Source: Alphaproteobacteria bacterium
GTDB lineage: Bacteria > Pseudomonadota > Alphaproteobacteria > RF32 > CAG-239
Length of the DNA stretch: 64,000 bases
Assembly (NCBI GenBank): GCA_017475525.1
Contig: JAFVFH010000034.1
Coordinates: forward strand, 4,375-68,374
Direction of reading: 5' to 3'
The notes below the pieces were generated by a model that was not told the origin of the DNA, ran no database searches, and saw only the letters and a program-made list of their open reading frames with translations. The translations under genes and the position numbers were made by a program. This document shows, in pieces, positions 60,525-64,000 of the stretch. Each line of letters starts with the position of its first letter. Within the stretch, counting starts at the first letter, position 1.

Positions 60525-60803
60525 TTATTTTCTTTCGCACAATTCCAATTCTTGCCTCAGTTTGTTAATCCGCCCGAGCCATTCAAATGTGTTCGGAAAA
60601 TCGGAACTGTTCAATTTTGAAAGCTCTTTTCCTACCTTTGACCCGCCTTTAGGGTAAACAGGACATACATCATAATTTATTTTGCATGAACAGTCCGATA
60701 AGCTCAGCATGAGAAGCGTTAGGCTCAGACCAAATTTCAGCTTTTTCTTTGTTAACATATTTAATGACCTCAACTTCTTTGATAATTTCTTCGCCTTTTT
60801 CAT
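60525..60803 (-). CDS. o-spanin-like outer-membrane lipoprotein (phage lysis accessory), tentative
   Basis: LMLSLSDC lipobox, short Pro-containing mature part, embedded/overlapping with preceding i-spanin-like ORF in another frame. Confidence 0.4.
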   Translation of the reverse strand: MKKAKKLSKKLRSLNMLTKKKLKFGLSLTLLMLSLSDCSCKINYDVCPVYPKGGSKVGKELSKLNSSDFPNTFEWLGRINKLRQELELCERK

Positions 60804-60906
60804 GCAAAATTTTTACTTCACTATGCGCTCGACCTAAAAAATAAAATCCGGCGCAAAGCAAAACTTCAAGCAGTGCGCCGAAAATCAGTTTATAACCTGT
60901 TGTCAT
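60670..60906 (-). CDS. i-spanin-like protein (N-terminal TM anchor + periplasmic helix), tentative
   Basis: MTTGYKLIFGALLEVLLCAGFYFLG TM then charged helical region; ATGA overlap with upstream holin-like gene. Confidence 0.4.
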   Translation of the reverse strand: MTTGYKLIFGALLEVLLCAGFYFLGRAHSEVKILHEKGEEIIKEVEVIKYVNKEKAEIWSEPNASHAELIGLFMQNKL

Positions 60907-61181
60907 TTGATTTTCTTTTCGATTAAATCCGTCAGCTTGTTTAAAATAAAAGCATTCGCCCAATCATATAAGGGTCGTGAACATAAAATGATAATCCCGC
61001 AAAAACCGGATCTCACCGCACCGTCTGCCACCCAAAATCCCAAAAGCAAATAAAATGAATAGCCCATCAAAAAGCCGAGAATCGCATCTATTAAAAATTG
61101 CATTAAGCCCTTAAAACGAATAACGGCAGAAACAACTGCCGCCAAGCTCAAAAACAACAAAACTTTAATATCTTCAATCAT
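60903..61181 (-). CDS. holin-like small membrane protein (3 predicted TM), tentative
   Basis: 92 aa, three hydrophobic segments, charged C-terminus; position in phage-like cluster. Confidence 0.4.
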   Translation of the reverse strand: MIEDIKVLLFLSLAAVVSAVIRFKGLMQFLIDAILGFLMGYSFYLLLGFWVADGAVRSGFCGIIILCSRPLYDWANAFILNKLTDLIEKKIK

Positions 61182-61513
61182 AAGTTTTCCACCTCCTTAT
61201 ACGGAAACTTTTGTTTAATTTCCTCAACCTTTTTTGAGCGCTCGGCAATGAGCTCTGATATTTTTGCCTCGTCAGGCTCTGCCTCATCTCTTAAACGCTC
61301 GATATGCGCTGTTATCGGGTCGACCTCTTCCTTGTATGCCGCCGCCCGATTTTGCCTTTGCTCTTCATCTGTCGGCTCGGGCAAAGGCGGGTTTTGAACA
61401 CTTTCCAAATAATCGCCCTTATCTTCAATATGGCAATTGTTTTCGTTGCAATAAACCGCCAAGTCGGCATAGTCTTTATTTTTATATGGTTTGTTTATTC
61501 TCATTTCATTCAC
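61178..61513 (-). CDS. phage-associated hypothetical protein (tail-fibre assembly/chaperone position)
   Basis: 111 aa acidic protein immediately downstream of tail fibre gene, overlapping stop/start. Confidence 0.3.
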   Translation of the reverse strand: MNEMRINKPYKNKDYADLAVYCNENNCHIEDKGDYLESVQNPPLPEPTDEEQRQNRAAAYKEEVDPITAHIERLRDEAEPDEAKISELIAERSKKVEEIKQKFPYKEVENL

Positions 61514-63153
61514 TCCTTAACATACCCTTTAACCTGCCACCAGTTTTTGCCAACATTTCCGGTATATGAAAACGATGTTGTTGTAAAACCCGCTGTAATC
61601 AGCAGAGGATAAGACCCGCTGTTATAAGCCTGTATCATGGCATAATAACTTGTATCTTTCATTTCTATTAAGAATGTGACTGTTCCGTTATTGCCGCTTG
61701 TATCAAGCAGTTGTCCGCCTTGTTCACACCAACCGTCAGACCAAATCCTATACCAATTATTTCCGTTTTTGTAAGTTTCAACAATATGCGGTATCGAAGA
61801 AAGTGTTGCATTAAATGTTGAAACATCCAGTTTGCTGTTAAATAACTCTGCGTTTAAGCCTGCCGTTTGTTCTATCGCTTCCTGCGTATAGTTTCCGACA
61901 TAGAAGTAAAGATACATTTCAGTTGCAGACGGTTGAACAGTTGTAGAATTACCATAGATTGATGATGAACGTGAAGCAGAAAATGAAAATCCCGCAGTTT
62001 CACTATTTGTTCCCGAGCCCGTTCTTCTTGAACCGGTATAGGAAGTATCAACACCAAAACAACCGTTTGCTTGAAGATAACCCACATAAAAATCAGAACC
62101 GAATACACCTGTGATGTTCGGCAATCCTGCTTCAACGAAGTCACCAACCCTGTTTCTCAATCCGGTAAAACCGAATTTTGTTCTCGGCAGTTTGAAACGC
62201 GTATTTGTTGTATCTAAAATAAAATACCACGCCACCCCCGTTTCATCATAAATATCAGCCACCGTTTGCGCTTGATCTTCTAAAACAATCTTGTGTCCGT
62301 CTGATGCCACATAAACAGTGATTGTGTTTGAACCAACCGTTTCCGTTGTCGGTGTTATACCTGTTATATCATCTGTCAAATGTTCATAAGCTGCTTCATA
62401 AACCGTGCCGTCTTGCCATGAAAATGTATCAGCTCTTAACCACGAAACATTGTTTAGCAAATGATCAGACCATTGGAACGTCAAAATGTCGGGGCGATAC
62501 CCTCCCGAATCAAGCGCAATCGTATCACCTGTCGCCTGATTGAGCGTAAACGAACCTTTTGTTTCTCCACCTTGTGTCAACGTGATTGTCGGATTATTGA
62601 CCGTCGGCAACGCCGAACTCGTGATAAACCCCGCACCGTTTGTTAAATCTGCCGTATCCGTCGGCACCGCGATGTTTGCCGTTGCGTTTGTTGCGCTGTT
62701 TGCCGTAAATGTCGCAATGCTTTCCCCGTTCTTTTGAATTGTGAGTGTCGCATCATTGACGATCGGAATTGTCGGCTTTCCGCTCAAATCATCATAATCA
62801 CCAGTTATCGCCACCATTGCCAAATCACTTATTAAACTTGACGAAAGCTTGTTGTCTGAAGTGATGACGTTCTGCTTTTCAGCAAACTTTGCCTCACCTA
62901 TCGGCGATAGGTTTGAAAGATCAACATTTGCTAAATCACCCACCTTTTGATTTATTGATTCAATGCCCTCTTGAGTAGCTTGTTTAATTTCTGTCGTTCC
63001 GGATTTGATGTAGTTAATCGCACGTTCACAGTCCATCTTTGCCGCATCGCCGATTAAAACATCAATCTTTCTTTTCGGTTCAATTTGCGCTGTCATCTGC
63101 CCGCTTGAGCATATAGCAACGTTCAAATGTGCCTCATCTTCATTTATTTTCAT
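61510..63153 (-). CDS. phage tail fibre protein
   Basis: Ser/Thr/Asn/Gly-rich repeats (TLTIQKNGESIATFTANSATNATANI, TITLTQGGETKGSFTLNQATG), beta-rich C-terminal domain; AAGAGG RBS before ATG 63153 (ORF-track start 63243 is an extension). Confidence 0.65.
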   Translation of the reverse strand: MKINEDEAHLNVAICSSGQMTAQIEPKRKIDVLIGDAAKMDCERAINYIKSGTTEIKQATQEGIESINQKVGDLANVDLSNLSPIGEAKFAEKQNVITSDNKLSSSLISDLAMVAITGDYDDLSGKPTIPIVNDATLTIQKNGESIATFTANSATNATANIAVPTDTADLTNGAGFITSSALPTVNNPTITLTQGGETKGSFTLNQATGDTIALDSGGYRPDILTFQWSDHLLNNVSWLRADTFSWQDGTVYEAAYEHLTDDITGITPTTETVGSNTITVYVASDGHKIVLEDQAQTVADIYDETGVAWYFILDTTNTRFKLPRTKFGFTGLRNRVGDFVEAGLPNITGVFGSDFYVGYLQANGCFGVDTSYTGSRRTGSGTNSETAGFSFSASRSSSIYGNSTTVQPSATEMYLYFYVGNYTQEAIEQTAGLNAELFNSKLDVSTFNATLSSIPHIVETYKNGNNWYRIWSDGWCEQGGQLLDTSGNNGTVTFLIEMKDTSYYAMIQAYNSGSYPLLITAGFTTTSFSYTGNVGKNWWQVKGYVKE

Positions 63154-63163
63154 CTCAAACCTC

Positions 63164-63514
63164 TTATTTTGTGATTTGTTCGGTGACCCTAAATGTCGCA
63201 ATTTGGTTCGGATTTGCCGGATATATCGTGTTGACCGAACCATCAGATAAAGTCACCTGAATGTCGGTCAAGTAATCACCAACCGCAATGTTTGTCTGCA
63301 ACGGTGTCAATAAAATCGCCATTTTGCCGTTTAAGGCATCAACCGGCGTTCCTGTAACAGAAAACATCAAGTTTCCGCTGTCATCTCTGACCTGCATCAA
63401 CATTGTTGCACCTGTCAAATCCACCGGCTCGCATTTTTCTTTGAGCTCAAAGTTGATCGTAAAGCTGTCGCCTTGTCTGACCGTAATTAAATTTTCGTTC
63501 ATTGTTCCACTCAT
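63164..63514 (-). CDS. phage tail/baseplate-associated Ig-like domain protein, hypothetical
   Basis: 116 aa beta-rich; sits between tail-collar protein and tail fibre. Confidence 0.35.
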   Translation of the reverse strand: MSGTMNENLITVRQGDSFTINFELKEKCEPVDLTGATMLMQVRDDSGNLMFSVTGTPVDALNGKMAILLTPLQTNIAVGDYLTDIQVTLSDGSVNTIYPANPNQIATFRVTEQITK

Positions 63515-63517
63515 TTA

Positions 63518-63991
63518 TTAAGCCTCCTTTTTTGCCTTAATAAACCAATTCACAGCTTGGTTAATCGGCGTCACGTGCTCTGATGCGCCATAAAGTTCGC
63601 TCTGACCTGTTGTGTTTAATTGTATTGATCTTCTGACATATCCGCCCGGCTGCCCGCCCGTATCTCCGCTGCCATCAGGATCGCCGTTTCCCTGCTGTCC
63701 TACCCAATACGTATCAGAAGAAGAAAAAACTTGAGGCAAACCCTCATTTTGTGTGGTGTAAATATCAGATGCCGAATCACCGCCCAAACCTCTCAAAAAC
63801 TTACCGCGATAATCAGGCACATTAAATGTGCTCACCCCATCGCCCGCACCGAAGTTTGTCCCAATCAGCGCAAACAAGTCCGCATAATCCGAGCGTGAAA
63901 CAGCCTGCCCGTCACACAAAAGCCAGCATCCGTGATTTGCAGTTTGCACCGAGGCTTTGATATCGCCCAAATCCAAATTAGCAGACATCAA
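63518..63991 (-). CDS. phage tail-collar domain protein
   Basis: CDGQAVSRSDYADLFALIGTNFGAGDGVSTFNVPDYRGKFLRG = Phage_Tail_Collar motif (C.GQ..S...Y..LF..IG..YG.GDG.TTFNLPD.RG); start codon 9 nt from window end. Confidence 0.75.
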   Translation of the reverse strand: MMSANLDLGDIKASVQTANHGCWLLCDGQAVSRSDYADLFALIGTNFGAGDGVSTFNVPDYRGKFLRGLGGDSASDIYTTQNEGLPQVFSSSDTYWVGQQGNGDPDGSGDTGGQPGGYVRRSIQLNTTGQSELYGASEHVTPINQAVNWFIKAKKEA

Positions 63992-64000
63992 ATCAAAAAT

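Follow-up and report, generated by a model that had tools for sequence, protein, structure and literature searches.

Genes at the distal end of a phage-derived cluster

The stretch of DNA analysed here, 64,000 nucleotides of contig JAFVFH010000034.1 taken as a whole (hereafter, the window), ends within a group of phage-related genes located between positions 60525 and 64000, which is the region under study. A preliminary description, made from the letters of the sequence, had listed seven open reading frames (ORFs) on the minus strand of this region, and all of them are present at the coordinates given there (Table 1). They constitute the distal end of a cluster of phage origin, of roughly 17-20 kb, that encodes a short-tailed particle with a complete head in a gut or rumen alphaproteobacterium; they comprise an adsorption module, formed by a collar protein, a BppU-like connector, a fibre and an acidic helper, and a release module, formed by a holin and a pair of overlapped spanins. 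Judging from its gene families, the cluster is a capsid-encoding element of the Mx8/P22-like podovirus type, and comparisons between genomes indicate that it appears to be inherited vertically in many gut and rumen Alphaproteobacteria. There is about an even chance that it represents a domesticated, host-maintained and probably SOS-induced particle producer, comparable to gene transfer agents (GTAs) or to PBSX, and not homologous to RcGTA.

Table 1. Features of the phage-derived region and of its border with the neighbouring genes (window coordinates; aa, amino acids; TM, transmembrane segment; LRR, leucine-rich repeat).
Feature	Position	Strand	Evidence
Tail-collar-domain fibre protein, C-terminal 160 codons of 252 aa	63518..64000	minus	Pfam Collar, PHROG, PDB
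116-aa BppU_N-like fibre or baseplate connector protein	63164..63514	minus	Pfam, PHROG, conserved position
547-aa tail fibre / receptor-binding protein, NCBI MBR2299527.1, locus tag IJ870_03015	61510..63153	minus	Fold match, N-terminal conservation, position
g108, 108-111-aa acidic protein after the fibre gene	61178..61513	minus	Composition, conserved position
92-aa class-I-like holin, three hydrophobic segments	60903..61181	minus	Hydropathy, homology, position
78-aa i-spanin-like protein, one N-terminal TM	60670..60906	minus	Hydropathy, homology
o-spanin-like small lipoprotein gene, overlaps the i-spanin gene in another frame	60525..60803	minus	Homologues, arrangement
Terminator-like hairpin with T-run, downstream of the o-spanin gene and ahead of the LRR gene	60312..60334	minus	Consensus scan and sequence

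The genes are tightly packed. Overlapping stops and starts, which had been reported for the cluster, are seen at three of the six junctions, with four nucleotides each (GTGA between the fibre gene and g108, and ATGA both between g108 and the holin gene and between the holin and i-spanin genes); the remaining gaps measure 3-10 nt and show AGGAGG-like ribosome-binding sites.

The first protein of the adsorption module matches the Pfam family Collar (PF07484, E 6.5e-20, 71.3 bits versus a gathering cut-off of 24), PHROG tail-collar and fibre families, and the T4 gp12 collar in PDB, in agreement with the tail-collar domain assigned to it previously. The reading frame stays open as far as the edge of the window, and the full 252-aa gene is found at positions 8878-9636 of L001, a contig that extends the locus (L numbers designate the retrieved loci). 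The preliminary description was right that the window ends inside the cluster; since the collar ORF runs off the window, the start that it gave for this gene, a TTG at 63991, is an artefact. The next protein, formerly described as Ig-like (immunoglobulin-like), survives testing as a BppU_N-like protein (PF10651, 30.3 bits versus a cut-off of 23.1; phrog_1084, E 1e-17), and in 36-47 related loci its gene is the one that immediately follows the collar gene.

The 547-aa protein has no Pfam or PHROG match. Nevertheless, its description as a tail fibre is upheld by its position, by a fibre-like fold and by a pattern of conservation in which the N-terminal 70-100 residues or so are common to the same-position genes of sister elements, with a mosaic C-terminus. 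It has 3223 metagenomic homologues, some of them with Mtd_N or Peptidase_S74 domains. The AlphaFold model is only partly confident (predicted local distance difference test score, pLDDT, of 62), the confident domains being residues 250-330 and 455-547; with this model, Foldseek detected the R2 pyocin fibre (6ct8, E 3.7e-4) and the AP22 gp53 fibre, as well as 29 BFVD entries at E<=1e-3, the majority of which carry a tail-fibre annotation. The small acidic protein that follows, g108, contains 27 D+E versus 17 K+R residues, and shows 37-59% identity to the post-fibre gene in at least six relatives (L007, L059, L071, L076, L086 and L087), so that both the acidity and the existence of this gene are borne out; its PHROG matches are weak, to families of unknown function. 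From its composition and place, g108 is a candidate fibre assembly factor.

The lysis cassette and the end of the element

The holin-like gene with three TM segments proposed earlier is corroborated by the hydropathy profile, which shows three hydrophobic segments and a charged C-terminus, and by its orthologues, which directly precede the lysozyme gene in L006, L004 and L102. Its identity to the gene preceding the endolysin in relatives is 47-78% (78% to L006 16595-16873); no Pfam or PHROG family matches it. The i-spanin-like protein, as predicted, has a single N-terminal TM segment, and it is 75% identical to the product of L006 17328-17576, which comes after the lysozyme gene. The likely start of the o-spanin is the Met at 60758, which opens a signal-peptide-like N-terminus with a Cys; homologues were found in 22 other elements, with the same overlapped arrangement where this was inspected (L006). 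The overlap is as described before. The lipobox is another matter, since it reads LSDC and is non-canonical: the residue before the Cys is S, A or G (C in two) in 19 of the 19 homologues that cover the lipobox, and D occurs there only in the window lineage among the compared o-spanins, with an identical sequence in three independent samples.

The lysis genes of relatives are ordered as holin, GH24 lysozyme, i-spanin and o-spanin. In L006, L004, L102 and L107 a 156-aa Phage_lysozyme gene is located between the holin and i-spanin genes (L006 16870-17340); the family assignment to GH24 Phage_lysozyme was made in L102 and L107, and other members have a 140-aa protein that is SleB-like by eye. In the window, at the place that this gene of approx. 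470 bp occupies in relatives, the stop of the holin gene overlaps with the start of the i-spanin gene (ATGA), and the lysozyme gene is cleanly absent, which confirms the earlier remark that no endolysin lies between holin and spanins. The L100 lineage is also devoid of endolysin, and of i-spanin. The window cassette resembles the canonical one of Gram-negative hosts in its three-TM holin, its type II membrane i-spanin and its overlapped o-spanin-like gene for a putative small lipoprotein, and the sister elements have in between a GH24 lysozyme or a SleB-like hydrolase; it differs from the canonical one in the missing endolysin and in the LSDC lipobox. Because the endolysin has been lost and the lipobox altered, release must use another hydrolase or be impaired.

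A 332-aa protein encoded further upstream (L001 3493-4491) could be an entry or backup muralytic enzyme, and a substitute for the endolysin, to judge from the E-x8-D-x5-T spacing of T4-type lysozymes and a weak match to the Pfam family Phage_lysozyme (E 0.0016); in blastp it matches the GH24 endolysins weakly. It has a domain in common with Mu-F-fused proteins of sister elements, and no match was obtained in PDB, even with a profile. Another candidate for the missing endolysin was the 518-aa protein of phrog_5107, a family labelled 'amidase' in PHROG. This candidate was rejected, given that the protein is a gp10-like hub that matches 'phage stabilization protein' and Mx8 p52, and its homologues are structural.

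Homology to the sister elements stops after the o-spanin gene, and the end of the element falls between 60525 and the start of an LRR gene at 60280. The terminator-like hairpin located in this interval is likely the end of both the late operon and the element. An Rfam scan of the region gave no match.

Continuation of the cluster beyond the window

L001, a contig from ENA, is 99.96% identical to window positions 51510-64000 and runs on for another 9.1 kb. From the window edge outwards, this part carries the rest of the collar gene, and genes for a 232-aa protein, a GNAT acetyltransferase and the 180-aa g180 (phrog_20268), followed by four tandem genes for 185-aa secreted proteins, the gene for the 332-aa protein, the major head protein gene, a scaffold-sized gene, small ORFs, and a large terminase gene (terL) of the Terminase_3 type. 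The major capsid protein was assigned to phrog_9953 (E 2e-108), and the capsid and terL genes lie 6-9 kb past the window end. Extending the sequence upstream of position 64000, as the preliminary description had recommended, thus brought up further phage genes (GNAT, capsid, scaffold and TerL), and the proposed edge of a phage-derived element turned out to be the distal end of a cluster that continues in L001. No tape measure, tube, sheath or baseplate genes were found in L001 or in any complete relative (L100 and L107).

For the window's own copy, three contigs carry its fibre or BppU proteins, and the longest of them ends approx. 2.9 kb upstream of terL; the closest capsid representative in the databases is 92% identical to the L001 capsid protein. 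All the visible core genes of this copy are full length.

The four tandem genes of L001 (4544-6938) encode proteins of approx. 185 aa with signal peptides, and are inserted between the capsid gene and g180. These paralogues and the 332-aa gene are common only to L004, L005 and L089, and look like moron-like cargo.

Distribution, gene content and gene order of the family

When the TerL fragment was used as a query, at least 137 loci were confirmed by tblastn in a collection of species-representative genomes. The best 80 of these loci come from 80 different assemblies, all but two of them named as uncultured Alphaproteobacteria or Proteobacteria of gut origin (human, mouse, ruminant and others). 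Loci L080 and L083 (CAVIDY010000016.1 and CAVEOB010000007.1) are filed under metagenome-assembled genomes (MAGs) of Bacteroidaceae and [Ruminococcus] gnavus; in both of them the element and its flanks are approx. 98% identical to the alphaproteobacterial MAG of L078, and these contigs are probably mis-binned. The capsid protein has 5863 homologous clusters at E<=1e-10, and it shows 28-49% identity to its homologues in Mx8, Brucella Tb-type, Stenotrophomonas BUCT555, Bradyrhizobium and Ruegeria phages, whose genomes measure 39-53 kb.

The gene set of the family was defined by clustering 1943 ORFs from 93 loci. The early and packaging genes comprise an S24 repressor similar to CI and LexA, a divergently transcribed gene of 130-165 aa, the small terminase gene (GP3_package in L107) and terL. 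The set further contains a Cpn10/GroES-like gene, the portal gene (phrog_12082), a gene for a 70-aa protein, and those for the scaffold, the capsid protein and g180. These are accompanied by an adaptor-like gene (phrog_6013, with a weak SU10_adaptor match), the 518-aa hub (phrog_5107), a GNAT gene and g232, and by the Collar, BppU and fibre genes, with or without the acidic protein, and the holin, lysozyme, i-spanin and o-spanin genes. The repressor, with a Peptidase_S24 or CI-like assignment, was detected in 55 related loci. The conserved 130-165-aa gene and the other early ORFs have no Pfam or PHROG match. In type B members (see below) a 76-aa protein was considered as a truncated GP3-like small terminase and rejected, as hhalign detected no relationship. 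The GroES-like co-chaperonin gene (Pfam Cpn10), an unusual possession for so small an element, is located beside the portal or terminase gene (L100 7154-7396, L107 6791-7048 and L105 6845-7102).

The blocks are arranged in at least three orders. In type A, the commonest, the portal gene comes after terL, and the adaptor and hub genes come after g180; the right ends of most type A copies fall outside the retrieved loci. In type B, which includes the closest relatives of the window copy (L004, L006, L007/L100 and L008), the adaptor, portal and hub genes are located upstream of terL. In type C the element starts immediately behind priA, and the portal, fibre and lysis blocks precede terL. The copy in L100 measures 18.2 kb and is located between a sulfatase gene plus a tRNA-Gly gene and a gene for an outer-membrane-protein-like product plus ELM1; that in L107 has at least 16.6 kb, from a CorC-type neighbour to the contig end. 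Complete copies thus measure 16.6-18.2 kb; all characterised phages with a related capsid protein have genomes more than twice as large.

Inheritance, selection and composition

In each of several chromosomal contexts, the element is present at the same site in several species in which the neighbouring MurD, Asd or TrkH proteins are 66-79% identical. The divergence of the element follows that of these neighbours: MurD identities of 71-72% are accompanied by identities of 77, 67 and 77% for TerL, portal and major capsid protein, respectively; Asd identities of 66-78% by 76-87% for TerL; and TrkH identities of 69-77% by 76-84% for TerL, with PriA behaving alike. The groupings obtained from the element and from its neighbours are congruent, with r = 0.76 (n = 78), or r = 0.89 for mixed flanks. 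The selection is strongly purifying: for most core genes the ratio of nonsynonymous to synonymous substitution rates (dN/dS) takes values of 0.02-0.15, at a dS of 0.2-1.9, and it is 0.05-0.26 when the window lineage is compared with L004. The GC content of the element equals that of its host.

Integration and replication functions

No Pfam domain for an integrase, a recombinase or a replication protein was found in L100, L107 or the type C copies bounded by priA, and none for an integrase in L102 or L105; the box II motif of tyrosine recombinases was present in none of the 1943 ORFs. The interval between the repressor and the packaging genes of relatives holds only two to four small ORFs without family match. 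Up to 4.5 kb away from the repressor the flanks consist of housekeeping genes, in at least 12 different contexts; in the Pfam scan of 80 left-flank proteins this holds for the top 25 of the 123 matched families, so that a single integrase could escape. No direct repeat of 11 nt or more was found across the ends of L100. The dif core is absent from the window and from L100, a weak negative because the consensus used is of the E. coli type and may not be that of this clade.

The only recombinase seen near any copy is a 226-aa serine recombinase of the resolvase/invertase type, which adjoins four of them: the closely related type C copies L078, L080 and L083, at their right ends and near a tRNA-Ala gene, and L067, beside terL. 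A further observation concerns the tRNA-Gly(ccc) gene located by the repressor of the UBA3773 element in L100 (875-1337), where a tandem duplication of approx. 230 nt repeats the 3' end of the tRNA. The duplication lies wholly on the side away from the element and resembles the trace that a different integration or excision would leave.

A domesticated particle producer, an autonomous phage or a decaying prophage

The reading of the cluster as a domesticated producer of particles rests on the absence of integrase and replication genes from complete relatives, the housekeeping flanks, the co-divergence with neighbouring genes, the purifying selection, the host-like GC content and the small size. 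It is by such a combination of traits that GTAs and PBSX-like elements are recognised. If it is correct, a possible course of events can be outlined. Induction by the SOS response is suggested by the S24 type of the repressor: RecA-stimulated self-cleavage of this protein would turn on the late genes, and the terminase would then fill the heads with DNA, which would be largely that of the host because the element can neither replicate nor excise. The Mx8-type heads of relatives hold 39-53 kb, more than twice the 17-18 kb of the element itself. Particles would be released by the holin, the spanins and a muralytic enzyme, and would be directed to related cells by the fibres of the window genes. 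A narrower version of this proposal, which we hold only tentatively and consider somewhat less probable than its opposite, is that the elements may form an undescribed family of podovirus-type GTAs, unrelated to RcGTA and transmitted vertically in low-GC gut and rumen Alphaproteobacteria ('Azospirillum sp. 51_20' / RF32-like), with a LexA-like repressor as the switch, Mx8-type heads filled with host DNA, and the window fibres setting the range of recipients.

Several observations weigh against domestication, and most of them are what would be expected if the region were the right-hand end of an ordinary, functional, small temperate podophage, with unrecognised functions for integration and replication and with relatives that co-speciate with their hosts. 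The CI-like S24 repressor faces an early gene, as in a classic lysogeny switch, and the missing functions might reside in conserved small ORFs such as the 130-165-aa gene, in genes outside the retrieved stretches, or in host factors. A tRNA gene is located within approx. 1.5 kb of an element end in four context groups, which hints at past site-specific integration, and the small serine recombinase beside four copies is a phage-like trait. Some members have longer early regions (3.5 kb), with DUF6291, DUF6456 and an HNH gene in L105, or carry genes that resemble, by eye, those for ParB and PAPS reductase (L050-L060); all these members could be autonomous phages. Relatives are present in IMG/VR and among 17-21 kb records named 'Bacteriophage sp.' from human faeces. 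Shuffling of gene order, as seen here, is commoner among phages than among domesticated loci that have become fixed, and the exchanged fibres and moron-like cargo add to this mosaic picture; in some pairs the element is 81-88% identical and the flanks 52-57%, which is compatible with recent spread. Moreover, the integrase test was heuristic (a motif expression plus precomputed Pfam tables) and was run on relatives, the left half of the window copy, with portal, hub, repressor and left junction, being outside it. On the other side stand the lack of an integrase or replication domain in L100, L107 and the priA-bounded type C copies, the absence of recombinase motifs in the 1943 ORFs apart from the small serine recombinase, the ends of L100 without direct repeats, the occupation of the same site in species whose MurD, Asd or TrkH proteins are approx. 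70% identical, with congruent groupings, and a size of less than half that of any characterised phage with a related capsid. Taken together, an autonomous podophage is a serious but clearly less probable explanation, and the prophage of the preliminary description is doubtful as an ordinary prophage, with complete relatives that carry neither integrase nor replication genes and have diverged together with their neighbours.

The lysis cassette raises a different issue, since the loss of the endolysin and the doubtful lipobox fit decay as well as domestication. The window copy could be a decaying, defective prophage that makes or releases no particles, with the LRR gene and the other neighbours as unrelated host genes. 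The clean gap between holin and i-spanin and the unusual D of the o-spanin agree with this, as do the foreign material between the capsid gene and g180 (the four 185-aa genes, the 332-aa gene and a 133-nt repeat), the loss of endolysin and i-spanin in a second lineage, L100, and the fact that the left half of the window copy is outside the sequence seen. Nevertheless, this copy has full-length core genes wherever they are visible, the dN/dS values relative to L004 are those of a lineage under selection, an identical sequence was recovered from three independent samples, and the 332-aa protein could replace the endolysin; for these reasons decay is considered unlikely. The degraded remnant contemplated earlier therefore describes the lysis cassette, with its missing endolysin and mutated lipobox, and not the visible structural genes, which are intact and under purifying selection. 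As for a tailocin or another headless, phage-tail-like particle, with fibre, tail and lysis genes only, it would agree with what the window itself displays, namely fibre and lysis genes, and with the R2 pyocin fibre as the best structural match of the fibre in PDB. This option of the preliminary description was rejected, and we see practically no room for it, because the 99.96% identical contig shows capsid, scaffold and terminase genes in one continuous stretch with those of the window, and tape measure, tube, sheath and baseplate genes are lacking in all relatives. The tRNA genes, the early regions, the relatives in IMG/VR, the shuffling, the pairs with similar elements and the unseen left half are the reasons why domestication is given only an even chance, with autonomy behind it and decay well below both.

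Comparison with known systems

The element shares with the Mx8/P22-like podophages (Mx8, Brucella Tb-type, BUCT555 and Sulfitobacter pCB2047-C) homologous capsid, portal and gp10-like hub proteins, a short tail with fibres, a CI-like repressor and, in one relative, a small terminase of the GP3_package family. It differs from them in that these phages have 39-53 kb with integrase and replication modules, whereas the element has 16.6-18.2 kb and neither of these modules, and is fixed at conserved chromosomal sites across species.

RcGTA is encoded by a head-tail cluster without integrase or replication genes that is vertically inherited, under purifying selection and of host-like composition; its particle is of the siphovirus type, built with a tape measure and a T=3 head, its control is by CtrA and GafA, and its lysis genes are elsewhere. 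The element described here is likewise an alphaproteobacterial head-tail cluster, in whose complete copies no integrase or replication genes were found, with apparent vertical inheritance, purifying selection and host-like composition. In contrast to RcGTA, it is podovirus-like, possesses its own LexA-like repressor and lysis cassette, and shows several gene orders; family assignments set it apart from the RcGTA type, as it has a Terminase_3-type TerL and an Mx8-type capsid protein of phrog_9953, and neither a tape measure nor a major tail protein.

PBSX of Bacillus subtilis is a contractile-tailed element of 28 kb in a Gram-positive host, controlled by an Xre/Xpf switch (established knowledge; PMC12946183). 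Both elements have a resident repressor, and terminase, head, tail and lysis genes, no genes for integration or replication, and a conserved chromosomal position; induction of the SOS type would be expected for the element from its S24 repressor. They differ in that the element is short-tailed and has spanins, suited to a Gram-negative envelope. The GTA of Faecalibacterium, FpGTA, is encoded by operons of 10.5 and 5.5 kb, and packaging of host fragments of 8.4-8.9 kb was shown experimentally (PMC12946183). It resembles the element in being gut-bacterial, podovirus-like, near-ubiquitous in its clade and composed of structural and lysis genes (PMC12946183); the differences are the unrelated host phylum, the split operons and the demonstrated packaging. 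In the literature searched, nothing similar was found for gut Alphaproteobacteria, FpGTA being the only gut example found (PMC12946183); no paper was found that links GTAs with RF32, and none that cites MT835830.

Neighbouring genes and a repeated sequence

Three genes of the minus strand separate the element from other parts of the window, and none of them is found in any sister element outside the window lineage. The nearest (59315-60280) encodes an LRR protein of the BspA type, either a lipoprotein or a secreted protein, whose internal repeats keep a 66-nt register. It is followed by the gene for a 417-aa protein (57734-58987) with a HEXXH motif and weak matches to Peptidase_M78 (IrrE-ImmA-like) and DUF6782; ImmA-like proteases are often part of mobile-element switches. 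Beyond it, a pilin-like gene (56508-57299) shows a prepilin-type N-terminal methylation motif, with weak matches to N_methyl and to a PHROG 'pilin' family. Both the pilin-like and the LRR genes are located between the element and the ffh operon. In L014, a distant relative, the element lies just downstream of ffh-rpsP-rimM-trmD-rplS (L014 2997-6466, corresponding to window 52802-56341), and the window copy is on the upstream side of that operon; this shared neighbourhood could be a coincidence, the result of a local rearrangement, or a favoured region.

A near-invariant repeat of 133 nt with three hairpins is present three times in the window (17450-17583, 33572-33704 and 43891-44024). A fourth copy (L001 6971-7104) falls within the element itself, where it separates the last 185-aa paralogue from g180, and the assembly L002 breaks at this repeat. 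Its minimum free energy is -57.5, versus -39.1 for shuffled sequences (z = -4.9), and it has no Rfam match. The repeat could be similar to miniature inverted-repeat transposable elements or repetitive extragenic palindromic sequences (MITE/REP-like), or a small RNA.

Implications

For the annotation of genomes, the presence of a fibre and lysis end alone is no ground for the label 'incomplete prophage' or 'tailocin'. Should the element prove to be autonomous, it would represent a temperate tailed phage of unusually small size that integrates and replicates by an unrecognised route. If it is domesticated, Alphaproteobacteria would have a second GTA-like system of independent origin, and very few systems of this kind are known from bacteria of the gut or rumen. 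The element would then provide a sequence-defined target for the study of capsid-mediated gene exchange in a largely uncultured clade, in which the fibre genes of the window would determine who exchanges DNA with whom.

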